Counted from the first letter of the stretch, positions 1,637 through 31,747 are shown. The stretch is DNA of 35,707 nt from Candidatus Bathyarchaeia archaeon (GCA_049512075.1 JBEKXL010000023.1:1-35707); one strand, 5' to 3'. Program-made: numbers and translations. The notes: a model not told the origin generated them from the letters alone.

Positions 1637-1799
1637 GAGGTCTATGTTGACTTTCGAATTGGCGCGCTTGGTCCGGAATTCCACAGACCGCTCGAAAAGA
1701 CGACGGACAGAGGGCTTGACGAGAATAGTAGTGCCGCAAGAAACACAAGAACATGAATCTATATACCAGTTGATCCGCTCTTGAAACCCCTTGGCGCCT

Positions 1800-3092
1800 T
1801 CAATATCTTCTTCTCAGCAGATACAAAACCGAGAGAGCAATAATGACGATTGTTGAAACAATCCATGATTCTATGGGCAGGGAGAACATCAGGATGACGC
1901 AGCTAGCCAGCCCGAGAGAGGGTATCAGAGGGAACAGCGGTGCCTTGAATGTTTTCAGATTTGGAATCTTTTTCCTCAGTCGTATTGCGGACGAGTGCAG
2001 TATTATGTGAGTGGTGAGCATTGAGAAGCTCGTTATTGCGACAGCTTGTCTCAGATCTGAGACGAATGCCAGGATGGCCATCAGTGCTCCCGTGATGAGG
2101 ATTGAGAGGTATGGTGTCCCGAGTTTTGTGTGGATTTTCGCCAAGGCTTTTGGGAACTGCCCGTTCCGTGCCATCGTGAAGGAGACTCTTGACAGACCTA
2201 GCAAGTTTGTTAGAAGCACGCTTACAGTGGCAACGAGAGCTCCAAAGGAAATTGTTGCGAACACGGCGTAGCTTCCAGTTGCTTTCGCTGCCTCAGCAAT
2301 GGGAGAGCTTGATATTCCGAGGCTTTGGTAGGGTACGAGGCCCGTTGCGACAAAGCCAGTCACAACGTACAGAATCATCGACGCGCCCAACGCGAGGAAT
2401 ATCGCCAGCGGCAACGTCCTCTTCGGGTTCTCCACCTCTTCGCCGAGTGCTGCGATTCTTCCGAAACCCAAGTACGCGAAGAAAATGAAGCCGGCACCCT
2501 GAAGGATTCCGAAAAAGCCGTTCGGAGCAAAATTAGAATAATATTGCGGGTTCACCTGAAAAGCTCCGACGACCACAAAAAAGCAGAGGATCAATATCTT
2601 TGTCACGACTAAAACGTTGTTAACCCTCGCGGAATGCTTAATCCCCCTGAGATTCAGAGTCGTCAAAGCCAACGCCGCTGAAACAGCGACAATGTTCACG
2701 GTTGAAACGGCAAATGAAAAGACAACGATTTTGGCAGGAAAGAAAGGAAATAACCCCACAAAGTAGCTCGCCAGTCCCAGGCATACGGCTGACCCGGCGA
2801 CGGTTTGTGCAAACAACCACATACAGCCCGAGATGAACGCTACGAAGGGATTAATCAGCTCATAGGCATATTGATATGTACCTCCTTCTTTCGGAATTGC
2901 CGAACTTAGCTCGGCAAAGCTGATCGCAGTGAACAGGGCGACCGTTCCCGCGATAATCATCGAGATGACAACGGCCGGCCCAGCATAGCCCACAGCAACA
3001 CCCAAGACGACGAATATCCCTGCACCGATTATTGCCCCGATGCCAATTGCCGTGGCGTCGAAGAAGTTCAGGGTTCTCTTTAACTCCACCAT
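1800..3092 (-). CDS. APC-superfamily amino acid permease
   Basis: LKRTL...IGAIIGAGIF, FAELSSAIPKEGG, GEEVENPKRTLP motifs; about 12 TM; start moved to ATG 3092. Confidence 0.92.
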   Translation of the reverse strand: MVELKRTLNFFDATAIGIGAIIGAGIFVVLGVAVGYAGPAVVISMIIAGTVALFTAISFAELSSAIPKEGGTYQYAYELINPFVAFISGCMWLFAQTVAGSAVCLGLASYFVGLFPFFPAKIVVFSFAVSTVNIVAVSAALALTTLNLRGIKHSARVNNVLVVTKILILCFFVVVGAFQVNPQYYSNFAPNGFFGILQGAGFIFFAYLGFGRIAALGEEVENPKRTLPLAIFLALGASMILYVVTGFVATGLVPYQSLGISSSPIAEAAKATGSYAVFATISFGALVATVSVLLTNLLGLSRVSFTMARNGQFPKALAKIHTKLGTPYLSILITGALMAILAFVSDLRQAVAITSFSMLTTHIILHSSAIRLRKKIPNLKTFKAPLFPLIPSLGLASCVILMFSLPIESWIVSTIVIIALSVLYLLRRRY

Positions 3093-3545
3093 TTTCCCCA
3101 AGCAAATCTGAAAACGGCTGTGCTTATAACACATTCTGTAACGAGCTTGGGTGAGGCCAGTTTCCTTCAGACTTTTTTCTTGGCGACTTTAGAATGGTTG
3201 AAATTAGCGCGTTATCCAGTTCCTGGCCGTCAAAACGGTGGAGGCTGAGAGCATGAGGACGTGTTTCGGGAGAAGCGCGTGAGAAAGTCGACCCCCCTAC
3301 TTTTTGTTCGTAATGTCAGATGTAATCTGTAATTAACTTATCCTCGCAGTTTATCTAGCATTAGCTGTTTAAGTGCAGTCCGCCTAGACAAAGAAAAAAA
3401 GATAGGGATAGTGCCCTAGAAGGGAAATAAAACAAAGCTAGTCTAAGGGATGTAGGGAGTTTCTCAGCCAAGAGGAAATAGATGTGAAGGCTCTGCTCAA
3501 AGCAATAGAAAGATTAAGTGAAAAGGCATAAGAAAGTATGCAAGT

Positions 3546-3887
3546 ATGACAGAGATTTCAATTGAGGACAGTAATCTTACGCTCAGGCGTGAGCGCTGGA
3601 AATCTATGCTTAAAGGCACTGCCATGACAAAGTCTGGCTATTACTCTAATACGGAAGACCTCATAACATTGTACTACCCTCCGCAAATAATTAGAAATGA
3701 CTGTGTTCTTACCTATGATAGCATAACCCATAAAGTGAAAATAGAATCATTGATAGATTCGGTGACCTCAACTCTAGAGCATGAGTACCTTCATGCCGTA
3801 CTCCGTAAAACAGTAGGAAAGGAGGTTTCAGGAGAATTGGACAACCCTTGGGTTATAGCGGCGCTTCGCTTAATTTTAGAGCTATAG
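3546..3887 (+). CDS. Hypothetical protein with HExxH zinc-metallopeptidase-like motif
   Basis: TLEHEYLHAVL; short ORF in AT-rich block. Confidence 0.55.
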   Translation: MTEISIEDSNLTLRRERWKSMLKGTAMTKSGYYSNTEDLITLYYPPQIIRNDCVLTYDSITHKVKIESLIDSVTSTLEHEYLHAVLRKTVGKEVSGELDNPWVIAALRLILEL

Positions 3888-4007
3888 GTAGCTACCTTAG
3901 TTTTTTGGAAAGAAGAGGAGAAGGCATTAATCTCCAAGTTTTCAGCAGCGCGCGCTATCAACATTATGTCGAAAGTGCAGAACGGAAACATTATCTCACT
4001 TTCTATC

Positions 4008-4679
4008 CTATACTTCATTTGTACTAAACTCTTGCTCACTCTGCAAATAGCCAATTCCATCAAAGTACCTCACAGAGACAGTGAAGTTATCCGACCTTGA
4101 GTTTCCAATCACAAGAATCGCAGGATTAGAAGTATATGAACCACCTATGATAGCAAGGGTTTCTGTATGAATAAACATCCCGATAGAGAAAGATGTTTCT
4201 CCCTTTTCTGGTATAGTAGTAATATTCACATTGCAGTATTTCGAAAGGTTAGAATATTCAACTACTGGAACCGTGTAAGGCGTTCCGTCTGAATAATGGT
4301 AAGTGACTGAGAGACCCATGCTTTCGACAATAGCATCCCGTGACCCTTCGTTTACTAGAGTTCCGTTTACCGTTAGGAAAACCCCATTAGCAACAAAAGC
4401 CCAATGCTGGTCAAATTGTGGATTTACTAATATACTCATGTTTGCTCTCATGTTGGCAACTTGCAATTCATATAGGGCTTGAGATAGGTTGTTTTGGGCT
4501 TGAATTAGTGAATTCTGGGCTTGAGATAGGGAATTTTGATGTGCATTAAGACTATATGTCGTAATGCCAAGAATGGTTGTCGATGCAATACTGAGAATTG
4601 AGATAAATATCAGGATTATGTCCTTGTTTTCCAAGAGATTCAACTCAAAAGACCGACTTTGCATCCTGCTTAAATCCAT
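4008..4679 (-). CDS. Membrane-anchored hypothetical surface protein (TM + coiled coil + beta-rich domain)
   Basis: N-terminal hydrophobic helix, heptad repeat NSLSQAQ/NSLIQAQ/NNLSQAL, LVNEGSRDA motif suggestive of an Ig-like fold. Confidence 0.7.
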   Translation of the reverse strand: MDLSRMQSRSFELNLLENKDIILIFISILSIASTTILGITTYSLNAHQNSLSQAQNSLIQAQNNLSQALYELQVANMRANMSILVNPQFDQHWAFVANGVFLTVNGTLVNEGSRDAIVESMGLSVTYHYSDGTPYTVPVVEYSNLSKYCNVNITTIPEKGETSFSIGMFIHTETLAIIGGSYTSNPAILVIGNSRSDNFTVSVRYFDGIGYLQSEQEFSTNEV

Positions 4680-4748
4680 TACTGTTATTGGTCACATAAA
4701 ATGTGCAGAATCGACTTATTATCAAGTTATCTTTACTGAGAACGTAAA

Positions 4749-4783
4749 GACAGAAATCTTTAATCGGCACAGCAACAGAAGAC
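4749..4783 (+). repeat. Repeat A copy 1 (promoter-like, no downstream ORF)
   Basis: GACAGAAATCTTTAATCGGCACAGCAACAGAAGAC, nearly identical to 6924-6955. Confidence 0.85.
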
Positions 4784-4821
4784 AAACTAAAGGACTAAAG
4801 AGGGAAACAGTTAGTCATTGT

Positions 4822-5718
4822 CTAACTAGCCATCACATCAACAACATGCCATTCTGACTTGAATTCTTTTTTGCCTCTTCGGAAGTATATCTCCAATAAC
4901 GCAAAGAAAGAGGCAACGGTTGCAGCAAAGACGTATTCTCTCTGAAGGTTAGAATAGTTGACAATAAGGTAGTAGAAGAAACTACATCCAATGAAGGAAG
5001 AGCAAATAGCCAATGCATGTTTTAGAACAACGTAGGTTCTGAACAGTCTAAGAACTGTTTGATGAATTCCTTCAGGCTGACCTGCCTTAACTGTAGTCTT
5101 CTCGTAGGTCGATTCACTTTTCAGCTTCTTGTTTATTACATCCAGCTTTGTAGGGTCTAAGCTGTAAATTGCAAGAGCAATTTCTTCCAGATGCTCTATC
5201 TTTATCGTTGAACCTCTTATTGCAGGAAGAACAGTCAGTTCTAGGTTCTTAAGAAATTCTCTAAGAATTTCGTTTGTTGGTTTGTACCATGAGATGTTAT
5301 TATCGAGGCTCAGCCCATTCAAAGCGGTGTAAGCTCTCCGCACATCCCAATACGCTTCGTTATAACCAATGTCTTCTTTTAGCTTTTCAAGTAGACCTAA
5401 TGCATGAGTGATTTTTCGGAATGCATAGTTTTCTGGTTCGAGTGGTTGAATCAAAGTCGGAATCCATGAAAGAAAGATGGCTAAACCACCGAAAAATATT
5501 ATTAGAAAATCAATGAGAACGAAGATAGAACCTTGTGGAAAATAATAGGCCATTACGAGGAAGAAAACTGCAAGTACGATGGTGACGAGAATTTTGATTT
5601 CTGTAATTCTCCTTGTATCTTTTGCTTCAATTTCAAGCCTAGCAAGTGCTGTTTCGATTTGCTGTCGTGATTCCTCTTCAGCTTTCATTTTTGTCATTCT
5701 GTAGTAGTGTTTTTTCAC
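4822..5718 (-). CDS. Hypothetical membrane protein (2 N-terminal + 2 C-terminal TM helices)
   Basis: 298-aa ORF with four hydrophobic segments; start uncertain. Confidence 0.7.
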   Translation of the reverse strand: MKKHYYRMTKMKAEEESRQQIETALARLEIEAKDTRRITEIKILVTIVLAVFFLVMAYYFPQGSIFVLIDFLIIFFGGLAIFLSWIPTLIQPLEPENYAFRKITHALGLLEKLKEDIGYNEAYWDVRRAYTALNGLSLDNNISWYKPTNEILREFLKNLELTVLPAIRGSTIKIEHLEEIALAIYSLDPTKLDVINKKLKSESTYEKTTVKAGQPEGIHQTVLRLFRTYVVLKHALAICSSFIGCSFFYYLIVNYSNLQREYVFAATVASFFALLEIYFRRGKKEFKSEWHVVDVMAS

Positions 5719-5785
5719 CTTAAAAATCTATATTTACTAAATAGTTAGACCATTAATGGAAACCCAAAAGCTTCACCGAAGCTTA

Positions 5786-5810
5786 GACAGAAATCTTAAA
5801 TCTGCACAGC
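5786..5810 (+). repeat. Repeat A copy 2, BRE-TATA promoter of the 5826 gene
   Basis: GACAGAAATCTTAAATCTGCACAGC; TTAAAT about 30 nt before ATG 5826. Confidence 0.85.
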
Positions 5811-5825
5811 TAGAGATAGCTAAAC

Positions 5826-6218
5826 ATGGAAAAAGAAGAAAAAGACAAACGTCTTGCAGATTTTTATAGAGAGTTCATATTATTTTTTGCAGTACTATTT
5901 TTTACCTGTATGATTGGCATAATAACACTTCTTCCAGAACTTGAAAATACTAATGGGTTACTTAACTGGGGTTGGCTATCCATATCAGTTTTATATTTTG
6001 GGTTACTTCTAGGCATTGGCTACAGTTTGCATAAATGTTTCTACCTCTACAAACTAAACAAAATTTTTGGGGGAGAATTTGGTTTCAACTATCCTGAACT
6101 TGAAGGTTTGGTTAAGAAGATTTTCAAGAAAACAGAATATTTAGATGGGTTCTTAATTGTTGGAATCACTTTCGTTTTCATAATATTATATCTAGTCAAA
6201 CTCGGAGTATTGCACTAG
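5826..6218 (+). CDS. Hypothetical membrane protein (3 TM)
   Basis: 130-aa ORF with three hydrophobic helices, preceded by repeat A. Confidence 0.7.
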   Translation: MEKEEKDKRLADFYREFILFFAVLFFTCMIGIITLLPELENTNGLLNWGWLSISVLYFGLLLGIGYSLHKCFYLYKLNKIFGGEFGFNYPELEGLVKKIFKKTEYLDGFLIVGITFVFIILYLVKLGVLH

Positions 6219-6250
6219 AACTTAAACCCCAACCCAATCCGTGCATACGC

Positions 6251-6286
6251 TTTATATCTACACGGCAACAGAAGACGAACTAGGGG
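6251..6286 (+). repeat. Repeat A copy 3 (partial), promoter of the 6295 gene
   Basis: TTTATATCTACACGGCAACAGAAGACGAACTAGGGG. Confidence 0.7.
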
Positions 6287-6294
6287 ATTCAAGA

Positions 6295-6882
6295 ATGAGT
6301 GAAACGCAGTCTAGCGTAACTAAACCAAAGAAAATGGTTAGTAGAAATGTTGCTATTGCACTTGGAATAATCTTTATTGTTGTGATAGCTGGTCTAGCTG
6401 TAGCATTTGCATATTACATAAATGACAAGAACAACACGATTACTTCATTGAACATTCGAATATCAAGCAAAGATTCTCAGATTTCTCAACTGAACTCAAA
6501 CGTCACAAATCTTCAAAACCAACTGAACGACCTTAACAGTACCGTCAACGACCTTAACAAGGTGGTCAACTTTGAAAAAACTCAGTATTGGGAAGGGGGA
6601 GAGCAGATATATTACAACGCGAGTTCTTACCACGAATGGGGCTCAAACGCAGATTATGCAGGATACCTTGAAGTTGATGTCCAATCGAATGCAACTAGCA
6701 CCTACGTACAAGTCGCTTACTACTCATACGGCGTCCACTATGACAATCAAATAGTTGTGGGTGCAGGTAACACGCGAACATATTTTCCGATTCTTCCCGC
6801 TCTTACAGTCACAACTAAAGTGGGCAATACAAACTTGTTCGATGGAGCACTTATTGGGGTGACTATAATATATCACTACTAA
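6295..6882 (+). CDS. Membrane-anchored coiled-coil surface protein, paralog 1
   Basis: MVSRNVAIALGII TM anchor, N/Q-rich coiled coil, beta-rich C-terminal domain; start moved to ATG 6295 by alignment with the 6977 paralog. Confidence 0.8.
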   Translation: MSETQSSVTKPKKMVSRNVAIALGIIFIVVIAGLAVAFAYYINDKNNTITSLNIRISSKDSQISQLNSNVTNLQNQLNDLNSTVNDLNKVVNFEKTQYWEGGEQIYYNASSYHEWGSNADYAGYLEVDVQSNATSTYVQVAYYSYGVHYDNQIVVGAGNTRTYFPILPALTVTTKVGNTNLFDGALIGVTIIYHY

Positions 6883-6898
6883 ATCCTATTCTTTTTTT

Positions 6899-6955
6899 AG
6901 TTTAAGCCATGCCGTACAAAGAAGACAGAAATCTTAAATCTGCACAGCAACAGAA
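6899..6955 (+). repeat. Repeat B (TTTAAGCC core 6901-6908) followed by repeat A copy 4 (6924-6955)
   Basis: AGTTTAAGCCATGCCGTACA also at 7626-7645; GACAGAAATCTTAAATCTGCACAGCAACAGAAG follows. Confidence 0.85.
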
Positions 6956-6976
6956 GGACAAGATAGGGGTTTTAAA

Positions 6977-7609
6977 ATGAGTGAAGCACAACCAAACGGA
7001 ACCAAATCAAAGAGGATGGTTAGCAGAAATGTTGCTATTGCACTTGGGATAATTTGCGTTATCTTAGTGGTTGGCTTAGGCGTGGCAGTGGTATACTACA
7101 CATCAACAATAGGTTCGGTAACAAGCGATAAAGACAGTACTATTGCAAGCAAAGATAATCAGATAGCTTCCTTGAACAATCAGATACTTCACAAGAACTA
7201 CACGATTTGGGAACAAAACAACACGATTTCTTCATTAGAAACCCAACTGGCAACCCTGCAAGAACAAACCAAAGACATCCACATATTGGGCACAGGAAAC
7301 TCTCCATACTTTTTCGTAATTAATTTTACTGCATTTGTGGAAGCTGGGCCACCCCCCACATTCGCAGATTCATTTGTCGCTAATGCGTCTTCTGGATATG
7401 TTGTGGTCTGGGTTTCATCGAACAATAACTCAACATATGTTAGTGTCGCCCCACCTGTGAATGCTACAGATTCTTATTATCAAACAATCAATGTCGGTTC
7501 CGAAGGAATAGCAATCTTTCCAATTCCAGTAGCTCCCTTTGTCGATGTCGAGGTCGGTGTTTCTTCAGGCACGGGCACAGTCACATGGACAGCAATGTAC
7601 CTCCATTAG
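6977..7609 (+). CDS. Membrane-anchored coiled-coil surface protein, paralog 2
   Basis: Shares MVSRNVAIALGII, SKDxQI, GY..V.V.SN..STYV.V and FPI motifs with paralog 1. Confidence 0.8.
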   Translation: MSEAQPNGTKSKRMVSRNVAIALGIICVILVVGLGVAVVYYTSTIGSVTSDKDSTIASKDNQIASLNNQILHKNYTIWEQNNTISSLETQLATLQEQTKDIHILGTGNSPYFFVINFTAFVEAGPPPTFADSFVANASSGYVVVWVSSNNNSTYVSVAPPVNATDSYYQTINVGSEGIAIFPIPVAPFVDVEVGVSSGTGTVTWTAMYLH

Positions 7610-7732
7610 AACCCACTCTTTTTCCAGTTTAAGCCATGCAGTACAGAAGGCTCTAGTCAAGCTGAAAGCGGAATATGAGAAAGGGAAAACTTAGACTAAT
7701 AGAAAAAAGAAAGCAAGCGCGCGCTCTGGAGA

Positions 7733-7757
7733 AAAGACCGGGCACATCCCGGTTTTT
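7733..7757. terminator. Hairpin flanked by A/T runs between convergent units
   Basis: AAAGACCGGG-CACAT-CCCGGTTTTT. Confidence 0.4.
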
Positions 7758-7996
7758 AAGGAATATCGTGAGCCATGTCGCAGCAGCCAAAAACGTCTGT
7801 GCAGATGATGAATTAACGACGATTAATCTTTAGGTTCCGCCAATCTGCCCACAAAGGTGGCTAAGTTTGGCTGGGGAAGATCTTAACAATCTTTGGGTTC
7901 TGATATCAGGCATGTTGGTCTTTATTTGACGAGCGCGCGCGCTGTCGTCTCGCGTTGCAGGCTTCCGGATTTCCTTCGGGTTGAGAATGAGAGGTT

Positions 7997-9247
7997 TTAC
8001 GAAGCTGTGTCTGCGGAAGAGTAGGCTTCTTCCCCAGATTGGCTTAAGTCAAGCCCCTGTTCCTCTTCTTCTGGTGTTACTCTCAGCCTAGAGAACCTGT
8101 TGACGATTTTTAGGAGCACGAACGATACGGTGAAGGCAAACGCTATGACTGCCAAGACAGCTTCTATCTGGATAAGAAGCTGGTTCGGATTTCCATAGAA
8201 CAGCCCATTCGCGCCAGCAGAGTTCACTGTAATCGTTGCAAACAGTCCAGTTGCTATTGAGCCCCATATTCCGCTTACGCCGTGGCATGCAAAAACGTCG
8301 AGTGTATCATCCAGACGTGTGCGCGCTCGCCATGTCGAGACTAAGTTTGATAGGACCCCTGCGACCAGACCTATGACGATGGCTGAGGCAGGAGTGACAA
8401 AACCCGAAGCAGGCGTGATTCCTACGAGTCCGCAGACGGCGCCGATTGCAATCCCCGTTGCAGAGGGTTTGCCCTTCACCAGCGTATCCACGATCATCCA
8501 GCTGACTGCGGCGGCTGATGCTGACAAGTTAGTTACCACAAAGGCGCTCACGGCAAGTGGGCTTGCAGACAGGGCACTGCCCGCGTTGAAACCGAACCAT
8601 CCGAACCACAATAGCGCTGCTCCCAAAATCACGTATGGGACATTGTTTGGTTTTCCCTCTATTTTCTCGCGCTTAATTCTCGGTCCCACGACGATGGCTG
8701 CGGCCAGAGCGGTAACTCCGGCGGTTATGTGTACCACTGTGCCACCTGCAAAGTCAATAGCTCCCAAAGTCTTGATCCAGCCAGCAGGATTCCAAACCCA
8801 GTGCGCGACTGGCGCGTAAACAAAGGTTGACCACAGTACGATGAAGATGAGCAGTGAACGAAACTTTATTCTTTCAGCGAACGCTCCAACGATCAGCGCT
8901 GGCGCAATAGCCGCGAACATCAGTTCAAAAGCATAATAGAGCAGTTCCGTGATTCCAGGCGCATTATACTGCACGGGAAGAACTGTCGTCACGCCAACAT
9001 TGTTCAACAGCGCTTTGTCTAGGTTTCCAATGTATCCGCCCATAGATGTACTGAAGGCAAGGCTGTAGCCCCAAAGGGTCCACACCAAACCCACGACGGC
9101 GAAGATTGCAAAGCATTGCATTATCGTGTTGGAAAGGTTCTTTTTTCTAACAAGGCCCCCGTAGAAGAATCCCAAGGCAGGCGTCATAAGCATGACGAGC
9201 CCAGTAGCCATCAACACCCACGACGTATCTCCCGCGTTTACCGACAT
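7997..9247 (-). CDS. amtB: Ammonium transporter (Amt family)
   Basis: LVMLMTPALGFFYGG, DFAGGTVVH, LWFGWFGFNAGS, DDTLDVFACHG; start ATG 9247 after GGAAGGA, TATA at about 9307-9316. Confidence 0.96.
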   Translation of the reverse strand: MSVNAGDTSWVLMATGLVMLMTPALGFFYGGLVRKKNLSNTIMQCFAIFAVVGLVWTLWGYSLAFSTSMGGYIGNLDKALLNNVGVTTVLPVQYNAPGITELLYYAFELMFAAIAPALIVGAFAERIKFRSLLIFIVLWSTFVYAPVAHWVWNPAGWIKTLGAIDFAGGTVVHITAGVTALAAAIVVGPRIKREKIEGKPNNVPYVILGAALLWFGWFGFNAGSALSASPLAVSAFVVTNLSASAAAVSWMIVDTLVKGKPSATGIAIGAVCGLVGITPASGFVTPASAIVIGLVAGVLSNLVSTWRARTRLDDTLDVFACHGVSGIWGSIATGLFATITVNSAGANGLFYGNPNQLLIQIEAVLAVIAFAFTVSFVLLKIVNRFSRLRVTPEEEEQGLDLSQSGEEAYSSADTAS

Positions 9248-9570
9248 TTTCCTTCCTGCTCCAATCATTCCAGCCAGCGCAGAAACTTTTTTTGTGTCTC
9301 TACTTGTTATATATAGCTTTCGACCGCGCTGAAAGTCGAAATCCGCGTGGCTCAACAATTTGCCGGTGACAATACGCTTGAAGCGACATGTAATCCTTGG
9401 CGCGCGCGGGCCTCTCAAGAGCGCACGATATCTTGAACCAATGGCCGTCAAGATAAGAGGACTCGGATACAGTCTTAAAATGGGAACAAAGATAGGGTTC
9501 AAACTAGTGAAAGCTTGAGAGAGCCAACTCCGAAAAAAACATGGAGGAGACTAATGCACGGTCGCGCATC

Positions 9571-9861
9571 CTATCTTACGCCGAACTCACTGCATTCCTG
9601 TTCAGTCTTCAGCTCTCCAAGAGACTCCTTGAGCGTCAACGCATCATTCACTGCTTGAACCATGTCAACAGGTAAACAAACAAACACCTGCCCCAAAAAG
9701 GGCTTTTTCAACCCGAACTCCTCCAATGTTGCATCATTCAACCCCACATGAACATGTGTTACCTGCCAGCTGTTCGTGTCAACATCGCCTCCTTGGACTT
9801 CCCCGATTGTGACACCATCCGACGTTACAACTTTTTTCCAGTTCAGCTTGCCTAAATCCAT
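9571..9861 (-). CDS. PRC-barrel domain protein
   Basis: L.WKKVVTSDGVTIGEV..GDVDTNSWQVTHV and LPVDMVQAVND pattern. Confidence 0.8.
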   Translation of the reverse strand: MDLGKLNWKKVVTSDGVTIGEVQGGDVDTNSWQVTHVHVGLNDATLEEFGLKKPFLGQVFVCLPVDMVQAVNDALTLKESLGELKTEQECSEFGVR

Positions 9862-10078
9862 CTGTCAACCACCTATGACAACGCCTTTTGCTTGCGTGAA
9901 ATATAAGTTTTGAGAATCTATTTCAATATTCTGAAGTAAGCTTTCGAAGTGGCTCTCCAATCGAGTGCCCTAAATTCGTGCTACCCGTCAATGGGACAAG
10001 GGGACGAACACCACATATTGTGTTGTTCGTTGAGTCCGAAAAAGTGTGGATGCTAAAAGTAGTTAGACGACATGTGAG

Positions 10079-10303
10079 TTAAGGGTAGGTGTGGGCGTCT
10101 ACTTCAACTTGCTTCGGAAGCTTCTTTATTTCAATTTCCATACTCGTCGGAGCCTCTCCTTCAACCTGCTTCAGAGTTTTCAGGAAGCCTATCATCATAT
10201 TAGCCAATGTTTCCTGCATGAAATGGTTAAGGGGCAGTCTGATGCTGTCGACCCGGATCTCAGTCTCATAATTCTTCTTGAACGTTCTGTGCTTTGAACT
10301 CAA
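10079..10303 (-). CDS. Small protein resembling the C-terminal domain of archaeal MobB-type proteins
   Basis: IRVDSIRLPLNHFMQETLANMMIGFLKTLK pattern; TTG start after GGTGATG RBS. Confidence 0.55.
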   Translation of the reverse strand: MSSKHRTFKKNYETEIRVDSIRLPLNHFMQETLANMMIGFLKTLKQVEGEAPTSMEIEIKKLPKQVEVDAHTYP

Positions 10304-10486
10304 GACATCACCATCTAGGATAAGCCTGAGTTTTGGTTGATAACTATTGCGGTGCGGTGGTAAGTAAGGTTCTGTCAATTCTTCGGCCGGTAACGTGCTA
10401 GGTGGTCTAAAGCGCGCGCACCGACAAGATAAATAAGGAAGCGATGCTCAAGCTCTAATCGCAGTATTGCACTGTAGGATTCTCTT

Positions 10487-12241: not shown

Positions 12242-12323
12242 GCCATCACAAATCAAGCAAGTGTTTGTCTAGACATTTACGCCGCTGTCCTTGCCATTCA
12301 CAGTTGTTTGGGCTGGCGTGGTT

Positions 12324-23177: not shown

Positions 23178-23349
23178 CTATTCCGCGACTCCAAAAGACA
23201 GCAAGCTGACTCACTATGGCTCCTTTCCGCTCCTTCCTATTTTAACGGTGAAACTCACGTTTTTCTGTTGGCATTTGGGTCCCTTGTGAAACTCCAAGAT
23301 TATAGCGGTTATTGTGCTCTTATGCCTTTAAACTTTATTATTTTCTTCT

Positions 23350-23710
23350 GTAGGACATCTGGAAGTCTTCGAGGCAAGATGCCGAAATCAGGGTGCGGAA
23401 CTCTACCCGTTATTCCGTGTCCAAGAAGTCAAAGTAAAGGCGTCAGGGGCATTCTGAGAGTCGATCGGAAGTTTAGGAGTCCTGGTCCTCAAGAACTCAA
23501 AACAGCTTACAAGAAACGGGAGGTAATAGAGCGAGTTTTCAGTAGACTCAAAAACTTGTCAAGTCTTACGCAGCATAATCTCAGAGGATTAGCCAAGGTA
23601 ACGTTTCATTTTCAGCTCTGCGTCATTGCGATGCTTCTGACAGCTCAAGCAGCTGTCAACACGCACAAATTAAGCAAATCCAGAAGCGTCAGATATTTCG
23701 CGAACCAATT
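23350..23710 (+). pseudogene. C-terminal remnant of a DDE transposase (IS4/IS5/IS1182-like)
   Basis: PVIP...AYKKREVIERVFSRLK (Y-2-R-3-E-6-K signature)...RGLAKV. Confidence 0.8.
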
Positions 23711-23733
23711 TCGGAACAGCATGCGCGGCGCGC

Positions 23734-24171
23734 TCATCGATTGGCGTCGGTTAAGGGATATCGGGTCATGGCATCGATTATTTCTTCACTGAAGGTTTTT
23801 TTGCTAAGGTGCCTGGCAAAATCGGAAGTGGCTATTATACCGACCAACACGTCTTTCTTCTTAACAGGAAGCCGCCTTATTTTGTACTTGACCATTTTCC
23901 TCGCAGCATCTCTGATTGAGGCTTCCTCCTCGATTGTTATAAGCGGATCAGACATTACCTCAGAGACTTTAGTATCAAGCGGTTTTTTCTGTGCCATTAC
24001 CCTTCTAACTAAGTCTCTTTCAGTAACTATTCCCTTTGCGACATTGCCCTCCATTACTACGAGATCACCTACATCTTGTTGGTGCATTAGCTTTGCAGCC
24101 TCAAGCACGGTCCTATGAACATCAATTGTGATGACATTCGTGGTCATAAAATCTCTTACAGTTGGCATCAT
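23734..24171 (-). CDS. Tandem CBS-domain protein
   Basis: VRDFMT, GIVTERDL, VSEVMS, IRRLPV, LVGII; start moved to ATG 24171. Confidence 0.92.
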   Translation of the reverse strand: MMPTVRDFMTTNVITIDVHRTVLEAAKLMHQQDVGDLVVMEGNVAKGIVTERDLVRRVMAQKKPLDTKVSEVMSDPLITIEEEASIRDAARKMVKYKIRRLPVKKKDVLVGIIATSDFARHLSKKTFSEEIIDAMTRYPLTDANR

Positions 24172-24244
24172 TTTACAAGGACTATAGACTATAGTATAAA
24201 AGTTTTGGGACATCCCAATTCTGGATCGCGCGCGCGATTATAGA

Positions 24245-24580
24245 CAGCAGAGCACTTGTGGTTATGCGTTCGAGGCCTCTGGCCCTGTGCCTTCCGAGGC
24301 AGAGCTGCTCATTCAAACGAGAATTCATCCGTTCAATAGCTCCTCTCCACGTCCTTCGCTCTTTTGCAAAGCCCTGAAGACTACAGGGCAGCTGATGAAG
24401 GCGCTTATCGCTGATTTGCAGTTTTCAAGCAGGAAACTCAGAGAACAGCTTTCGGCTCGCGGAGTAAGAGCGGTGATTCCTTACCCAGCAAACCAGAGCA
24501 AGCGAGAGGCGAAGCTGCTGCGGGTGGACAAGTACCTCAGGACTCATGATCCCGTTGTCGAGAAGCAAATCTACACACAG
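24245..24580 (+). pseudogene. Central remnant of a DDE transposase of the same family as 23350-23710
   Basis: LIADLQFSSRKLR (second Asp), AVIPYPANQSK...LRVDK aligns with PVIPCPRSQSK...LRVDR; boundaries approximate. Confidence 0.75.
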
Positions 24581-24664
24581 GACTTGAATGGTCTCGATCA
24601 AATTTTGCAAAACCTCTTTCGGCTATGGCCTGCCCCTCCACGAAATACTTTAGCCCAGTCCTAC

Positions 24665-24934
24665 CTACTGGCGTGAGCGGGCGCGAGGTCCTTTGTGTGT
24701 CTTAAGAATGATGGAGCTTACGGTGCTCTTAACACCCTTGATCTTCATCACCTTGTTCTTGAGAATGTCCCTGAACTCCTCAATGTCGGACGCTGAAAAC
24801 AGCGTCACAATGTCAAACTCGCCCGTTACTTCGAAAAGTTCTTCGAGATTTTCAAGCTTGGAAAGAGCTGCCACTACGTTGTCCATTTCTAGTGACTCTA
24901 CAAAGATGTCTATGAAGGCGAGAAGTCTCGGCAA
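24665..24934 (-). CDS. Lrp/AsnC ligand-binding (RAM) domain-only protein, copy 2
   Basis: ELFEVTGEFDIV...IKGVKSTVSSIILKTHK. Confidence 0.88.
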   Translation of the reverse strand: MPRLLAFIDIFVESLEMDNVVAALSKLENLEELFEVTGEFDIVTLFSASDIEEFRDILKNKVMKIKGVKSTVSSIILKTHKGPRARSRQ

Positions 24935-25133
24935 ACTTAATCATCTTCCAACCGAACGAGCGACCGGTTGATTTATACCTTTTGGTACTCGGCGCGCGCT
25001 AGGAGGCTCTAGCTAGAATCCACTACCCGCTATCACTTCACTCAAAGGGGGACTCATGACTGTTCAAATCGCTCCAGGGTGCAATTGGTAGGGGAGTTGT
25101 GGCGATTAGGTGAAAAAAGGCGTGTTTTGGGTT

Positions 25134-25296
25134 GGTTTGGGTTTCGAAGTGCCAATAACAATTAAAGTATGGTTTAATTGGTGTTTTGTCCATGCTTTCT
25201 CGCGCGCGCTTTCTAGGTTAGTTTGGGTTCGAATAACGATTACTGTTTAAAATCAAGTTTTAATTAGTATTATGTCCATAGTACTAAGCGCGCGCG
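25134..25296. repeat. Two degenerate tandem units of about 80-87 bp, each ending in a (CG)n tract
   Basis: Shared blocks GTTTGGGT(T)TCGAA, AATAACRATTA, TTAATTRGTRTTWTGTCCAT, then CGCGCGCG. Confidence 0.65.
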
Positions 25297-25456
25297 GACT
25301 CTGGGGCTACAACTTCCGCATTTTCAGCGAAAGTGTTATCCAATTCCCGCTTTTCCTTCGGCAATTTCAATGCCTTCTGCCATGTAGGTATGTTGAAAGA
25401 GGCGTATAGGCATTTTGAATTTGATGTTGAACAATAATACGCGCGCGGCCCTACTG

Positions 25457-26542
25457 TTATCCAATTACAGATTCTACGTTTAGATTGAGTACCACTTCTG
25501 AAATGTCGCTCGCGTATTCTGCTGTTCTTCTTACGCTTTCAATGAGTAACCTCAAGTTAGAGATTTGGTCGATTTGGACACTGTGGGAAGACAGAACCGC
25601 TTCCTTTTCCAGCTCGCGAACTTGGGCTAACTTTTCAATTACACTCTCAGCCAAATTGTAATCATGCCTAAACACAGCTTCCACGGCGCTTTCAAACATA
25701 GAAATAGCCAAGCTGCTCAATTTTTCTGTTTTTTCAAGAAGTTCCGGATTTATTGGATCTTTCAAGGCCAATATGTTTTCAGCTATTTTCGTGGCGTGGT
25801 CTGCTGTCCTCTCTACAGATTTCTCTATGAGCCTATACCCCAAACATTCTCTCGGATTGTTTAAGCCAATTTCCCTAACAATTCGAGCGTTGGAAACCGC
25901 CAACTTCAACAATCTCACGATGTACAAGCTAAATCGATTGACTTCCCGATCAGTCTCGACAACTGCCTTAGCGGCAGAATAATCCAAACTCGCAAGACAA
26001 CCAGCAGCTTCCCTGTGCATAGACGCAGCTATTATCGACATCCTGCGCAGGGCACTTTGAACACCAAGTTCTGAGTAGTTGAGCAATATCTGAAGCGTCA
26101 AATCTGTCGGGGAATCAATAACGATTTCCGCCCCCACCAAGTAGTTTCTAGCGAAATTCTTCATGTAATTCCTCAACCCTACCGCCAACGGCTGCTGACC
26201 TTGGGCTCTTACATGAAGAATGTTGTAGCCAACCAAGTAGGCTGAAATCGCCTTTCTCATAACTGCGTCTGGATTGTCATTTGACGAAACTCGAATAAAC
26301 GCTTCATCTTTTCTTTCCTTCTTTTCAAGTCTTGAAGATGTTATCGATAATGATCCATCCTCTTCTTCACTAAGAACCATCAGGCTTCCTTTCTTGAGTT
26401 GATTCCGAGTAACCCATTTCTTCGGCAGAGAAAGAATATAGGTAGACCCACCAGTCACCTGAAGCTTTCTCTGCTCTTCATTCTTCTTTTCTGCTACTTT
26501 GGCCAAATCAAACCGCCTTCCATTGTCCTCTATTGAATCCAA
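25457..26542 (-). CDS. Archaeal phosphate regulator, AbrB/MazE DNA-binding domain + tandem PhoU
   Basis: RKLQVTGGSTYILSLPKKWV; ERTADHA and RRTAEYASDISE. Confidence 0.92.
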   Translation of the reverse strand: MDSIEDNGRRFDLAKVAEKKNEEQRKLQVTGGSTYILSLPKKWVTRNQLKKGSLMVLSEEEDGSLSITSSRLEKKERKDEAFIRVSSNDNPDAVMRKAISAYLVGYNILHVRAQGQQPLAVGLRNYMKNFARNYLVGAEIVIDSPTDLTLQILLNYSELGVQSALRRMSIIAASMHREAAGCLASLDYSAAKAVVETDREVNRFSLYIVRLLKLAVSNARIVREIGLNNPRECLGYRLIEKSVERTADHATKIAENILALKDPINPELLEKTEKLSSLAISMFESAVEAVFRHDYNLAESVIEKLAQVRELEKEAVLSSHSVQIDQISNLRLLIESVRRTAEYASDISEVVLNLNVESVIG

Positions 26543-26643
26543 CTACTCTATTGAATACATACCACTTCTATATAGACTATAAAGGTTATGTCGGATTACT
26601 ATATAACAGACTCGCACTATGGTACAAATGCGAGGAATAAGAA

Positions 26644-27762
26644 ATGAAAACTATATACATAATCACGATCGCTATAGCCGCAATCGTCATAATTGCAGGA
26701 GGAGCAATAGCCTACATCTTCATAGCTCAGTCCAACTCACCAAACTCTCAGGCAACGGTCAAATTGAATGGCGCTGGAGCAACATTTCCATACCCACTGC
26801 TCAACGCCATGATCGCAAACTACACTACGCAAGTGGAAACTAACGTTCAAATCAACTACCAATCAATCGGCAGTGGAGGAGGAATCTCAGCGCTGAAAAG
26901 CAAAACAGTCGACTTCGCAGCCTCAGACGCACCGTTAACCGCCTCCGACATGGCCAGTGCACCAAACACCCTTCATATACCAGAAACAATCGGCGCAGTC
27001 ACGATAGCCTACAACCTCCCAGGCATACCCTCAGGTCTTCACTTGACCGGCAAAATCATCGCGGACATCTTCCAAGGCACAATCACAACATGGAACGACT
27101 CAGCAATACAAAGCCTGAACACAAACAGAACCCTCCCCGAAAAGACCATAACTACAATCCACAGATCAGACGGTTCAGGAACAACCTTCATCTTCACTGG
27201 CTACCTCAGCCTTTCAAGCCAGCAATGGAATAGCGCAGTCGGACAAGGCAAATCAGTAGCTTGGCCAGGAGGAATAGGCTCAAACGGCAACACGGGAGTC
27301 GCATCAACAGTCAACGGAACGCAATATGCCATCGGATACGTCGAGCTGGCTTATGCATTGCAAAATGGCATGACTGTCGCAGCAATACAAAACCCGACAG
27401 GCAACTGGATAGAGCCAAGCCTGGCTTCGACGCAATCAGCAGTTCAATCTGGAGCCGCAAGTGGTCTACCAGCAGGCGACGCAAGCTGGGTGAATGTGAG
27501 TCTTCTGAACACTTTAGATGCGAATGCCTACCCAATAGTGAGCTTCACCTACTTGCTTGCATACAAGGAACTCAACGTGATTCCACAAATGACTCGAGAA
27601 AGAGCGACAACGCTAGTCCAATTCCTTTGGTACGTAGTGCACGACGGACAACAACTCGCGCCCAGTCTCGCATACGCACAGCTGCCATCAAACGTAGTCC
27701 AAATAGACGAAGCAACCATCCGGTCAATAACCTTCAACGGACAAAACCTACCAACAAGCTAA
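26644..27762 (+). CDS. pstS: Phosphate ABC transporter substrate-binding protein
   Basis: GAGATFPYP, YQSIGSGGG, DFAASDAPL, HRSDGSGTT, AIGYVE. Confidence 0.97.
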   Translation: MKTIYIITIAIAAIVIIAGGAIAYIFIAQSNSPNSQATVKLNGAGATFPYPLLNAMIANYTTQVETNVQINYQSIGSGGGISALKSKTVDFAASDAPLTASDMASAPNTLHIPETIGAVTIAYNLPGIPSGLHLTGKIIADIFQGTITTWNDSAIQSLNTNRTLPEKTITTIHRSDGSGTTFIFTGYLSLSSQQWNSAVGQGKSVAWPGGIGSNGNTGVASTVNGTQYAIGYVELAYALQNGMTVAAIQNPTGNWIEPSLASTQSAVQSGAASGLPAGDASWVNVSLLNTLDANAYPIVSFTYLLAYKELNVIPQMTRERATTLVQFLWYVVHDGQQLAPSLAYAQLPSNVVQIDEATIRSITFNGQNLPTS

Positions 27763-30425: not shown

Positions 30426-30436
30426 GGTGATATGAT

Positions 30437-31081
30437 ATGCACAGACTACTGGACAGAGGACTAGAACAACTAACAGCCATGGTTTTCAACATGGGCAAAG
30501 TAGCTGAGAAAGCGTTGGCCATATCTATTGATGGCTTCGTCAGGGAAAAGGATACCTCGGGAGATGTACACGAGCTATCGGAAATTCTCCTCTCCTTGAC
30601 CGTGGAGGTGGAGGAGAAAGCCTTCGGGTTGATCGCCAAATATCAGCCTGTAGCGTCGGACTTGAGGATTATCAACTCCTACATGAAAATCGCTTACGAC
30701 TTCGAAAGGTACGGCAGGTATGCGTGGGACATATGCTTCATACGCAAGCGTCTGGGTGGCTTGAAAGACTGCGAAGAATGGATACCTCATTTCATCGAGG
30801 AAATGGGGGAAAAGGTTCTCCAAATGGTGCGGACAAGCATAAACTCGCTTAAGAATCAGGACACCGACCTCGCCAAAGCAATATCTAAGACAGAACAAGA
30901 AGTAGATGAAATGTACTTCCAATACCTCGACAAGCTCGTGAAAGAGGCACATGTCACAGGTCAGTGCACGACTTCAAGTGTACTCGTAGTAAGATACCTA
31001 GAGAGAATAGCTGACCATGCAACATACATTGCCGAAGCAGTCGTCTACATCGCTACAGGGCAGAAAATAACTCTTAGATAA
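30437..31081 (+). CDS. phoU: Phosphate signalling protein PhoU
   Basis: QPVASDLR, DFERYG, RYLERIADHATYIAE; GGTGA RBS. Confidence 0.95.
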   Translation: MHRLLDRGLEQLTAMVFNMGKVAEKALAISIDGFVREKDTSGDVHELSEILLSLTVEVEEKAFGLIAKYQPVASDLRIINSYMKIAYDFERYGRYAWDICFIRKRLGGLKDCEEWIPHFIEEMGEKVLQMVRTSINSLKNQDTDLAKAISKTEQEVDEMYFQYLDKLVKEAHVTGQCTTSSVLVVRYLERIADHATYIAEAVVYIATGQKITLR

Positions 31082-31227
31082 CTAGGAGAAAATTTGAACG
31101 TAGAGTCAATACTGAACTGGGAAAGTTGAAATCGCTGCATAACAGTATGGCTTGTAGTGGTTGAACTTGAGGAAGATTCTTTCTTCATGCTTAGGAAAGG
31201 CTTGGCAAAGCGAGAAGGTTTTTCTTA

Positions 31228-31722
31228 ATGAATAGGATGAAAGTCCTTTTATTGTGTGAGCACAATTCAGCCAGATCGCAGATGGCTGAAGGCTTGCTTA
31301 GGCATCTGTACGGTGAAAAGTATGAAGTCTTCAGCGCAGGCTCAAACCCGACGCAAGTCAATCCTTTTGCCGTCAAGGTTATGGCTGAGATAGGGATAGA
31401 TATTTCCAAGCAGACTTCCAAGAGCATTGAAGAGTTCCGAAACACGCAAATAGATTTAGTTGTATCAGTCTGCAAGACCAGCGCCAAGCTGATGTGTTCA
31501 CTCTGTTCTTCACCAATAGTTATGGGTAGACCCGAGATTATCAACACGACACTACCCGGAGCAAAACACTACCTTCACCATGGATTCAACGATCCTTCCG
31601 AACTGGACGGGAGTGATGAGGAAGAGACCATTGCCTTTCGACGCACAAGAGACGATATCAAGAAGTGGATAATTGACAATTTTGCCGATCCAAAGATAGT
31701 AAGCTTAGCTGATGATTTGTAG
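31228..31722 (+). CDS. arsC: Arsenate reductase, LMW-PTPase family
   Basis: CEHNSARSQMAE (CX5R), SAGS.P, EIGIDIS, DP...FRRTRDDI. Confidence 0.85.
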   Translation: MNRMKVLLLCEHNSARSQMAEGLLRHLYGEKYEVFSAGSNPTQVNPFAVKVMAEIGIDISKQTSKSIEEFRNTQIDLVVSVCKTSAKLMCSLCSSPIVMGRPEIINTTLPGAKHYLHHGFNDPSELDGSDEEETIAFRRTRDDIKKWIIDNFADPKIVSLADDL

Positions 31723-31747
31723 GCGCGTGCGCTTTTTCTGTTATGCA

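Follow-up and report, generated by a model that had tools for sequence, protein, structure and literature searches.

The window and its tracts

The stretch of DNA analysed here (the window) is an entire contig of 35.7 kb (C23; 35,707 nt) from a Candidatus Bathyarchaeia genome bin, G000, which comprises 2.73 Mb in 86 contigs with 47.5% G+C. Its spacers carry short alternating runs of C and G, which we call tracts; the core of a tract is GCGCGCGC, and the usual unit is (T)A-GCGCGCGC-T(A). Comparison with related genomes shows that the tracts are derived junction fillers, located where DNA was deleted, inserted or rearranged. Here we describe them in the window and genome-wide, and weigh the possible sources of the filler, with particular attention to an IS5-like insertion sequence (IS) whose tips are GCGCGC.

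The gene content of the window is that of ordinary transport and metabolism (an amino-acid permease, Amt, a thiamine-diphosphate enzyme, an aldehyde dehydrogenase, a ZnuABC-type transporter, KdpAB, PstSCAB-PhoU and small regulators), and its sequence is present in peat, wetland, freshwater and sediment metagenomes. We compared G000 with a congener, G002 (a sister species at about 95% identity, with 85-96% across syntenic blocks; ~80% of the genome compared), and with an outgroup, G004 (about 80-90% identity; ~35% of the genome compared), and used three independent public assemblies or runs from other studies (X2, X4 and X6). Genes were called with a purpose-made, simple codon-usage caller, which gives 2539 genes in G000 (78% coding); the intergenic compartment defined by this crude caller amounts to 593 kb. 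The runs and associated features of the window are as follows, with the strand given where a feature has one.

1662-1667: GCGCGC, a 6-nt run near an alignment-block break at 1773/1791, the place of a ~290-nt G002 insert with CGCGCGC at its head
3335-7942: 4.6-kb segment absent at the syntenic G002 locus; blastn blocks stop at 3334 and restart at 7943, and the right edge is the 10-nt tract 7933-7942
3948-3955: GCGCGCGC tract, overlapping the beginning of a 35-nt sequence (3954-3988) with multiple copies in G001-G004
7717-7724: GCGCGCGC tract, 3' of the multicopy stretch 7607-7690
7933-7942: GCGCGCGCGC tract at an exact homology boundary (G002 homology from 7943)
9400-9408: GCGCGCGCG tract heading a 35-nt filler that replaces 1811 nt of G002, in the N-terminal extension of the longest Amt open reading frame (ORF)
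10412-10419: GCGCGCGC tract; the same place in G002 reads ACGCGCAT
12801-12807: CGCGCGC, a 7-nt run and indel hotspot, where G002 has ~550 extra nt and X6 has 2144 extra letters at 12795/12797
14915-14921: CGCGCGC, conserved in G002
14925-14931: CGCGCGC, CGCGTGC in G002
15001-15009: CGCGCGCGC tract, CACGCTCGC in G002, where synteny stops at 15013
15257-15264: GCGCGCGC tract, within a stretch unaligned to the syntenic G002 locus
18418-18425: GCGCGCGC tract followed by TA; the opposite-strand TAG is the stop of ORF 18425-18712, and G002 homology begins at 18476
23355-23733, plus strand: relic of an IS5-like GC-tipped element, composed of a fragment from the C-terminus of a transposase, AATTTCGGAACAGCAT as the right inverted repeat (23707-23722), GCGCG (23723-23727) and GCGCGC (23728-23733)
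24227-24236: CGCGCGCGCG tract, replacing a 149-nt G002 segment; an X4 contig skips about 435 nt from 24228 (24228-24664)
24287-24676, plus strand: possible second transposase fragment, weak (Pfam DDE_Tnp_1, E=0.0077, 16.4 bits, under the 23-bit cut-off)
24992-24999: GCGCGCGC tract common to G002, with complete divergence of both genomes immediately after it
25201-25209: CGCGCGCGC tract, identical in X2 record 8 and X6 record 30
25288-25296: GCGCGCGCG tract, identical in independent assemblies
25440-25447: CGCGCGCG tract, identical in independent assemblies
31723-31732: GCGCGTGCGC, a tract altered by one transition, immediately following the TAG of ORF 31228-31722

Alternating C/G runs of at least 6 nt number 20 in the window. 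A first-pass annotation of this DNA had reported 13 runs of at least 8 nt, and all of them begin exactly where it placed them (the full-length runs listed above from 3948 to 25440). Its list of shorter or imperfect runs stands for 1662 (6 nt) and for 12801, 14915 and 14925 (7 nt each), and needs rewording at two places: the sequence at 23723-23733 is GCGCG followed by an out-of-phase GCGCGC, and that at 31723 is an imperfect run directly 3' of a TAG. Two 6-nt runs absent from that list, at 8321 and 11574, lie inside large ORFs. The further claim that no run of at least 8 nt is coding is true in substance, the exception being 9400-9408, which falls in the first ~34 codons of the longest ORF at 7997-9502. 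This run is upstream of the conserved part of Amt, since the family match starts at residue 95 and the match to relatives starts at ~83-89 in most rows.

The tracts are not an assembly artefact, as independent assemblies reproduce them with zero differences (X2 record 4 over 9203-14957, X2 record 8 over 24062-26483, and X6 record 30 over 24001-26999). Blastn blocks between the window and G002 break at or beside tracts (7943, 9400, 12792/12865, 15013, 24228/24234 and 25000), and strain-level variation in X4 and X6 falls on them as well (7933, 12795/12797 and 24228). At 7933, for example, the tract is 2 nt shorter in X6, and X4 has foreign sequence ending in ...TAGCGCGCGC that abuts 7944.

The segment 3335-7942 contains six ORFs. 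Four of these were tested and match no Pfam family (3546-3887, 4008-4679, 4822-5718 and 6977-7609), a fifth (6241-6882) has Pfam matches below the cut-off only, and the sixth is 5826-6218. Six stretches recur many times in all four congeners (3954-3988, 4746-4790, 5787-5846, 6252-6500, 6920-6985 and 7607-7690).

Abundance and form of the tracts in the genome

The first-pass annotation had proposed an enrichment over chance, and genome-wide counts bear this out. GCGCGCGC occurs 553 times in intergenic DNA of G000, where Markov models of order 1, 2 and 3 predict 6.1, 22.9 and 101.7 occurrences, respectively; no other intergenic 8-mer is as frequent, and the unrelated word that ranks next occurs 99 times. 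Coding DNA has 85 occurrences versus 11-23 expected, a count inflated by weak ORFs. Expressed as loci, the total is 547 (468 intergenic and 71 coding). Runs of at least 8 nt in called ORFs number 79, and these are mostly in weak short ORFs or in the first (17) or last (13) decile of an ORF.

The run-length histogram is bimodal, with a second peak at 8-10 nt and a collapse beyond 10 nt. There are 8834 runs of 4 nt, 2105 of 5 nt, 669 of 6 nt, 195 of 7 nt, 284 of 8 nt, 186 of 9 nt and 105 of 10 nt, and just 6 of 11 nt or more (3, 2 and 1 of 11, 12 and 13 nt). By form, the tracts include 250 exact GCGCGCGC 8-mers, 186 9-mers and 90 copies of GCGCGCGCGC. Tracts are preferentially preceded by A and followed by T, and the sequences farther out are unrelated. 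Runs flanked by both comprise 40 of the form A-GCGCGC-T, 104 with 8 nt and 46 with 10 nt, and A(GC)6T does not occur. The out-of-phase joints GCGCGGCGC and GCGCCGCGC are at background (4 and 6 copies, versus 553 in phase). Single-substitution variants are dominated by transitions and occur ~46-71 times at each position, with no bias towards the first or last position.

A longer repeat around the tracts is ruled out, as in-register repeat families cover 36 of 1162 tract flanks. Hairpin-replication palindromes and target duplication around the tracts are likewise ruled out: complementarity between the flanks is 0.52 at position 1 but 0.21-0.29 over positions 2-12, and among 579 tracts there are flanking direct repeats of 2 nt in 55 cases, 3 nt in 11, 4 nt in none, 5 nt in 2 and 6 nt in none, so that no target-site duplication is apparent. 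CGCGCG lies within 150 nt of the end in 24 of the 86 contigs, which by a rough estimate made without a formal control is a mild excess at most.

Tracts also bound larger units. A repeated unit of ~265 bp that lacks inverted ends has an 8-9 nt tract on both sides and is present in at least five copies in G000:

C3:152463-152729
C6:79194-79456
C8:6415-6685
C13:8740-9010
C26:22430-22699

In addition, a 7.9-kb stretch of G000 (C3:7476-15334) lies between two inward-facing GC-tipped element ends, and contains five genes with 1-3 tracts in nearly every spacer.

Tracts mark junctions between sister genomes

A recombination junction was among the roles suggested by the first-pass annotation, which proposed that synteny breakpoints be checked against the tracts. 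This suggestion holds: the ends of alignment blocks cluster on tracts, tract contexts are disturbed, and strain-level indels coincide with them. Of the 338 informative intergenic tracts, 102 have both flanks collinear in G002, and 45 are collinear, undisturbed and of the same length, versus 665 of 1267 controls at random intergenic positions (odds ratio 0.14, p=8e-42; a smaller first sample gave 49 of 210 tracts and 484 of 792 controls). Intergenic block ends lie within 5 nt of a tract in 52 of 319 cases, compared with 1.7% of 20,000 random intergenic positions, and at 48 of 62 block ends located at tracts, G002 has no GC run.

Tracts turn over much faster than their flanks. In collinear pairs the tract is conserved in 24 of 128 cases starting from G000 and in 25 of 78 starting from G002. 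A same-length variant takes its place in 36 and 13 cases, respectively, and otherwise the tract is on the shorter allele (49 and 24) or the longer one (19 and 16). The size differences can be large; tract alleles of 8-13 nt stand opposite 38, 48, 137, 146, 149, 173, 439, 521, 604, 902, 1028, 1149, 1235, 2397, 4419, 4700 and 27,670 nt of unique DNA in the sister genome. There are also clean insertions of +8 to +12 nt opposite 1-2 nt (e.g., G versus GCGCGCGCG, and C versus AGCGCGCGCGC). Slippage of ±2 nt accounts for 10 of 79 clean events, and it is by such slippage and by point changes that the tracts are subsequently eroded. At one locus, G000 C1:34485, the sequence A-GCGCGCGCG corresponds to a GCGCG that pre-exists at the right edge of a 48-nt segment in the sister genome.

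The direction of change could be read with the outgroup G004, which is informative for 4 of 36 large events. Each of the four has an ancestral long allele, contiguous with its flanks in G004, and a derived tract allele in G000:

C2:167086
C4:78238
C13:24739
C25:6010

A small event at G002 C4:107706, the one informative case among 14 three-way comparisons, polarises likewise, so that the tract allele is derived in all five polarised events and no event has the opposite direction. Two loci at which G000 and G002 share a tract, and G004 has CTTGGGC or GGGCTCTCGC, give no direction, and paralogues within G000 were of little use because a paralogous copy spans both flanks for just 2 of 579 tracts. 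The two cleanest deletions removed 776 nt at C13:24739 and 604 nt at C2:167086; both are within conserved, apparently coding DNA and are sealed by ACCGCGCGCGTA and AGCGCGCGCG, respectively. The ancestral edges of these two deletions show no element and no GC microhomology.

By eye, the 776 nt missing at C13:24739 appear to belong to a helicase-type gene, of which G000 would retain a tract-sealed pseudogene.

A GC-tipped IS5-like element

At G002 positions that replace tracts, we found a superfamily of ISs and miniature inverted-repeat transposable elements (MITEs) whose ends read (T)A-GCGCGC-TG[GC]CTTGTCCC[TG]AAAT; the ends of a second subfamily read GCGCGC-A-TGCTTGTTCC. G000 has 59 such ends, with a GC tip of exactly 6 nt in 40 and of 8 nt in 4. 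Complete elements in this genome are 291 (four copies), 470, 900 and 1097 bp long, and the longest (C32:7475-8571) has inverted ends and encodes a transposase. A 348-aa paralogue of this transposase matches Pfam DDE_Tnp_1 (5.2e-12) and DUF772 (9.8e-9), as does a copy from another genome, G118 (2.5e-14 and 3.3e-9). Judged by these two domains, the element, of ~1.1 kb with inverted repeats, is of the IS5-family type.

The tips and the tracts have similar surroundings. Outside the element ends, A has a frequency of 0.78 at -1 and T of 0.58 at -2, and outside the tract ends A is 0.65-0.74 at -1 and T 0.35-0.43 at -2, versus A at 0.34 and an otherwise flat profile for background (CG)2 runs. The tips belong to the element rather than to its target, because one virgin empty site (G002 C8:5005 versus G000 C10) has neither a GC run nor GCGC, and because genome G065 carries a full element copy with tips and zero AGCGCGCGCT units (the 10-nt unit used below for counting). 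Element and tract also alternate at orthologous sites. A G002 MITE with tips of 6 + 6 nt (C1:16605-17042) corresponds to a 10-nt tract at G000 C14:8000, and a G002 element end (C6:103267) to an 8-nt tract at G000 C3:150020; in two more pairs the run opposite the element has 7 and 4 nt.

In the window, tracts had been noted beside transposase relics near the CBS gene, and this is what we find: ORF 23160-23792 carries a C-terminal fragment of DDE_Tnp_1 type (E=1.8e-6; DDE_Tnp_1_6, E=1.1e-6), which ends in a GC-tipped inverted repeat at 23707-23733 and is 38% identical to the G118 transposase over 115 aa (E=4e-21).

Two further elements deserve mention. A 2-kb GC-tipped element in G004 (C1:76840-78797) has no recognisable transposase among its listed ORFs, for which no family search was made. 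Genome G053 has a distant IS5-like element (C71, L266:1047-2266; 33% identity) with 21-nt inverted repeats starting GCGC-TAGGGTG, and GC tips therefore recur in more than one element lineage.

Distribution across genomes

GCGCGCGC has 168-646 matches in each of the five genomes of the genus and almost none in most sister genera. Strong enrichment of the 10-nt unit AGCGCGCGCT is seen in scattered genomes from at least four families of the order, where reversed-pattern controls give 0-6 matches. The highest counts are 121 in G118, 115 in G000, 91 in G102, 40 in G145, 35 in G132, 30 in G053, 23 in G039, 14 in G136 and 12 in G135. Three species of a single genus (g54) have 121, 91 and 4 units.

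The inverted repeat of the element is present in all five genomes of the genus; among 26 other close relatives, 24 have no match and 2 have one match each. In the sample of 151 genomes of the order, carriers of the repeat make up 5 of the 9 genomes rich in tracts and 9 of the 142 poor in them (odds ratio 18.5, p=3e-4; kinship among the genomes makes them non-independent, and p-values therefore overstate the association). G053 becomes a sixth tract-rich positive through the second subfamily, and G039 and G135, with 2-mismatch matches alone to the second pattern (and one control match in G135), were not counted as positive. G118 (C5:361718-362716; L264) and G102 (C132:6631-7536; L265), from a different family, have the same transposase at 75-79% protein identity and the same GC-tipped repeat, which indicates that the element has probably spread horizontally between families of the order. 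G018 has 227 GCGCGCGC matches, and the 20 kb of it that we examined show runs of 8, 9 and 10 nt only, with A..T flanks, between ORFs.

Position relative to genes

According to the first-pass annotation, the tracts bracket transcription units and might serve as boundary, insulator, supercoil-related or promoter-linked signals. Several observations speak against this, namely the equality of spacer types, the avoidance of starts, the poor retention in G002 and the variation within a genus. Tract density per kb is 0.88 in tandem, 0.67 in divergent and 0.82 in convergent spacers, and rises with spacer length. With respect to gene ends, the part of the claim that stands is a modest excess 0-20 nt after stop codons (62 observed versus 34.1 expected from random placement in the same spacers, 1.8-fold); upstream of start codons there is a deficit and no excess, with 16 tracts versus 33.1 expected at 20-40 nt and 1 versus 7.8 at 0-5 nt, and placement elsewhere is uniform. 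The depleted zone at 20-40 nt is roughly where the core promoters of short-leader archaeal genes are expected. The excess after stops may be explained by the unit itself, since TA-GCGC contains TAG and a scar that truncates a gene would bring its own stop. A promoter or terminator signal is ruled out by the equal densities in the three spacer types and by the depletion upstream of starts, and a role of the tracts as gene-boundary signals is not supported.

Candidate enzymes

We looked for proteins that could write, read or join tracts. G000 has a complete end-joining cassette on C16 (L216:571-3536), made up of LigD Prim-Pol (3.8e-83), Ku (1.3e-40) and a fusion of an ATP-dependent ligase with the LigD 3'-phosphoesterase domain. 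Among 31 related genomes Ku occurs in four, namely the three richest in tracts (G000, G002 and G004) and G010, which is tract-poor and element-free; end joining alone is therefore insufficient. The polymerase X thumb domain is found within the genus in G003 only and does not track the tracts, and no reverse transcriptase was found in G000. The idea that the tracts are a methyltransferase target finds no support: none of the five genomes of the genus has a C5 methyltransferase (PF00145) above the cut-off, N4/N6 methyltransferases (PF01555) occur in 28 of 31 relatives irrespective of tract content, and the pattern of deviations is not like that of HIP1, the highly iterated palindrome of cyanobacteria. 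The Z-alpha domain has no match, but this family is equally silent in all 14 control genomes.

Origin of the tracts

The explanation we prefer, to which we give about an even chance, is that the tracts are neutral scars of deletion or excision that stem from the tips of IS5-like elements, and not signals. The tract material would stem from the GCGCGC tips of the IS and its MITE derivatives, as suggested by the shared tip sequence, the outer flank and the co-distribution of tips and tracts. Because GCGCGC is self-complementary, the two tips of an element could pair together, or one tip could pair with a short GC stretch nearby. The element would then be lost, alone or with neighbouring DNA, and joining through 2-4 nt of pairing would leave an in-phase tract. 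For two 6-nt tips the product would be 6+6-4 = 8 or 6+6-2 = 10 nt, never 12, with the outer A/T flank retained, which matches the hard ceiling at 10 nt. A tip joined to a nearby GC stretch would give a one-sided, A-flanked 9-mer with the intervening DNA removed, as at G000 C1:34485. The joining might be performed by the Ku-LigD cassette or by another form of microhomology joining. Scars within genes would be destructive and hence purged, and those in spacers and dead genes would be retained, giving the picture of an intergenic-only motif. Two variants of the scheme are ruled out: random blunt joining of two retained tips, by the scarcity of out-of-phase joints (4 and 6 against 553 in phase), and a duplicated GCGC target, since a change of +4 nt accounts for 2 of 79 clean events, neither of them GCGC to GCGCGCGC.

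A number of observations weigh against this derivation from element tips. In the polarised deletions, the ancestral allele (in G002 and G004) has neither an element nor GC microhomology at the edges, so that insertion followed by loss within one lineage must be assumed. Full-overlap products, A-GCGCGC-T (40), are rarer than the 8-nt (104) and 10-nt (46) products, which the pairing model does not predict, and the 9-nt class (186 of 581 runs) requires odd-length tips or tip/flank pairing as an extra assumption. Excision itself was never seen directly, and as elements in metagenome bins are often poorly assembled, calls of presence and absence are soft. G001 and G003, both of which have tracts, yielded no Ku, so that Ku is not strictly required. 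G018 lacks both inverted-repeat patterns, this transposase and Ku, and the DDE_Tnp_1 elements visible in it have no GC tips; G145 (40 units) is negative for both inverted-repeat patterns. Conversely, nine tract-poor genomes hold 1-3 copies of the inverted repeat, and the number of tracts does not scale with that of repeat matches (253 tract and 4 repeat matches in G003; 168 and 13 in G001).

The tract-rich genomes G018 and G145, in which no GC-tipped element was detected, leave a minority chance for an activity that writes tracts, and this leads to an alternative that we entertain tentatively, as a possibility of some weight. Here the tract is primary: a horizontally moving activity would write a self-complementary (GC)4-5 linker into broken DNA, making any ends cohesive, and IS5-like elements would exploit the tracts, mimic them or insert preferentially there. 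An end-joining polymerase, a nuclease-ligase or a minimal mobile unit would be candidates. Such a writer would agree with derived deletions that are sealed by tracts and whose ancestral alleles lack both element and GC microhomology, with the clean +8 to +12 nt insertions, with the strict phase and narrow 8-10 nt length range, and with a distribution that is patchy even within a genus, as for a mobile determinant; the 8-nt tips at 4 of 59 element ends and the two element/tract orthologous sites also fit insertion into tracts. However, no candidate enzyme tracks the tract-rich genomes (Ku and polymerase X do not, and a reverse transcriptase was not found in G000), and the element tip is the sole sequence found to carry (T)A-GCGCGC. 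In addition, even G065, a genome devoid of AGCGCGCGCT units, has tips that are carried by the element, and tips are uniformly 6 nt, whereas the tracts are 8-10 nt. We consider it doubtful that some archaea of the order possess or repeatedly acquire a break-sealing activity that writes (GC)4-5 linkers, with the ~550 tracts as its fossil record and the IS5-like tips adopted to ride on it; if true, this would be sequence-defined end joining without a described prokaryotic counterpart, and a new kind of break repair.

The remaining explanations are improbable to different degrees. That the tracts are functional cis-elements at transcription-unit boundaries (Z-DNA or a supercoil sink, an insulator, or a binding site for chromatin proteins or SMC) is suggested by their almost exclusively intergenic location and strong over-represention, by the modest excess just after stops, and by alternating CG being the classic Z-forming sequence, but we find it improbable. 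Density is equal across tandem, divergent and convergent spacers, and placement is uniform apart from the avoidance of the 20-40 nt upstream of starts and the stop-proximal excess, for which TAG within TA-GCGC accounts. With both flanks collinear in G002 for 102 of 338 tracts, 45 of them undisturbed, and with the tract kept at 24 of 128 and 25 of 78 collinear orthologous positions, retention is poor; tracts lie at deletion junctions inside former genes, and species of one genus range from 121 to 4 units. Moreover, 8-10 bp is short for Z-DNA at physiological supercoiling. More improbable still is a system of crossover sites of integron-like cassettes, or two copies of a duplicated 4-bp GCGC target, and as a general origin this reading is already largely refuted. 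Tract-bounded segments do exist (24992-25447 in the window, a G002 array with 21- and 40-nt cassettes, and the ~265-bp repeat with its five or more copies), and IS5-family elements often duplicate 4-bp palindromic targets. Yet the lost segments have no flanking tracts in the long alleles of the sister and outgroup (G002 and G004), direct repeats flanking tracts number 0 for 4 nt and 2 for 5 nt, +4 nt changes make up only the two clean events already mentioned, and the one virgin empty site lacks GCGC. The least probable is an iterated palindrome like HIP1, with a methyltransferase-linked repair bias turning near-cognates into the perfect octamer. The tract is a GC-rich octameric palindrome in hundreds of copies, with many single-substitution variants and with same-length differences between species (36 and 13 cases), as this reading would have it; but the tract is intergenic only, whereas HIP1 is also found in genes, gains are mainly insertions or replacements rather than substitutions, the transition-dominated variants (~50 per position) have no bias towards the ends, and methyltransferases do not follow the tracts, C5 enzymes being below the cut-off in five of five genomes of the genus and N4/N6 enzymes present in 28 of 31 relatives regardless of tracts.

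Comparison with known systems

Our literature search, which did not cover supplements, found no description of GCGCGCGC tracts in archaeal spacers, and for archaea the term "highly iterated palindrome" leads only to cyanobacterial HIP1. The literature on excision footprints of ISs and MITEs in archaea and other prokaryotes likewise yielded nothing on such tracts. HIP1 (GCGATCGC) occurs in genes too, has cognate methyltransferases, and deviates mostly at its outer positions. Like the tract it is an octameric palindrome rich in GC that recurs hundreds to thousands of times in a limited set of lineages; the tract differs in being intergenic, in lying at indel junctions, in having no methyltransferase that tracks it, and in its even decay. 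The repetitive extragenic palindromes and bacterial interspersed mosaic elements (REP/BIME) of enterobacteria are imperfect palindromes of 20-40 nt that form hairpins, are conserved in place and are mobilised by RAYT. They resemble the tracts in being extragenic, in numbering hundreds of copies and in their link to a transposase family, but the tract is only an alternating run of 8-10 nt, lacks extended palindromy and turns over rapidly. Mammalian interstitial telomeric repeats are inserted at sites of double-strand-break repair by telomerase from an RNA template, and so share with the tracts a fixed short sequence that appears as a clean insertion between orthologous loci; in G000, unlike in that system, no reverse transcriptase was found. 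With (CG)n Z-DNA tracts the likeness is the alternating CG sequence. Runs of 8-10 bp are short for Z-DNA in vivo, and the G000 tracts, unlike Z-DNA tracts, are capped at 10 nt and have no positional logic relative to genes.

The closest parallels are transposon footprints. Tc1/mariner elements leave such footprints on excision. As in a footprint, the tract would be a short palindromic remnant of the terminal nucleotides of an element at its old site, a neutral scar that depends on inverted repeats and host joining. It would differ in consisting of just 8-10 nt of self-complementary GC tip, in its ~550 copies per genome versus 59 resident ends, and in its frequent coupling to loss of neighbouring DNA. 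Nearly precise excision is described for Tn10 (Ross, Swan and Kleckner 1979; Foster et al. 1981, as cited in 10.1101/2023.06.07.543989). In the portion of that citing work on which we draw, IS excision promoted by IEE and loss of ISApl1 are associated with flanking deletions, junctions with 2-4 bp of microhomology and an end-joining enzyme of the primase-polymerase type (10.1101/2023.06.07.543989). The tracts would share with these cases the loss of an IS with adjacent deletions and microhomology junctions, and G000 has a LigD Prim-Pol; the elements treated in that portion are bacterial copy-out-paste-in elements from the IS3 and IS30 families and, unlike the tracts, leave no fixed sequence there. 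Junction scars derived from mobile elements, in the form of a fixed GC palindrome with hundreds of copies in archaea, are best filed as a new form of a known process.

If the derivation from element tips is true, these genomes would preserve traces of hundreds of deletions and excisions, all marked by the same 8-10 nt scar. Gene loss, the formation of pseudogenes and the turnover of spacers could then be measured directly, in rate and size, in uncultured archaea of peat and sediment. The derivation would also account for the low coding density (about 78%), and would document both large-scale footprint formation by an IS5-like element in archaea and transfer of such an element between families at 75-79% protein identity. 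The archaeal Ku-LigD cassette suggests itself as a possible joining machinery, although Ku does not track the tracts. For annotation, the lesson is that a strongly over-represented intergenic palindrome need not be regulatory.

Other features of the window and genome

The closest named relatives of the Amt protein are at most 62% identical to it and come from metagenome bins labelled Nitrososphaerales, Bathyarchaeota and Thermoplasmata. The thiamine-diphosphate enzyme at 10487-12241 has a fused N-terminal rubredoxin domain (5.8e-10). Two minus-strand ORFs, 18425-18712 and 24665-24934, consist of the Lrp/AsnC ligand-binding domain alone (7.4e-17 and 1.7e-14, respectively), and the DNA around them is duplicated, in that 24707-24987 matches the G002 counterpart of 18476-18760 at 81%. 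Elsewhere in G000 there are eight paralogues of the TATA-binding protein (e.g., C3:194207-194800, with a representative Pfam TBP match of 1.7e-59), which by our own clustering form the largest multicopy protein family of the genome.

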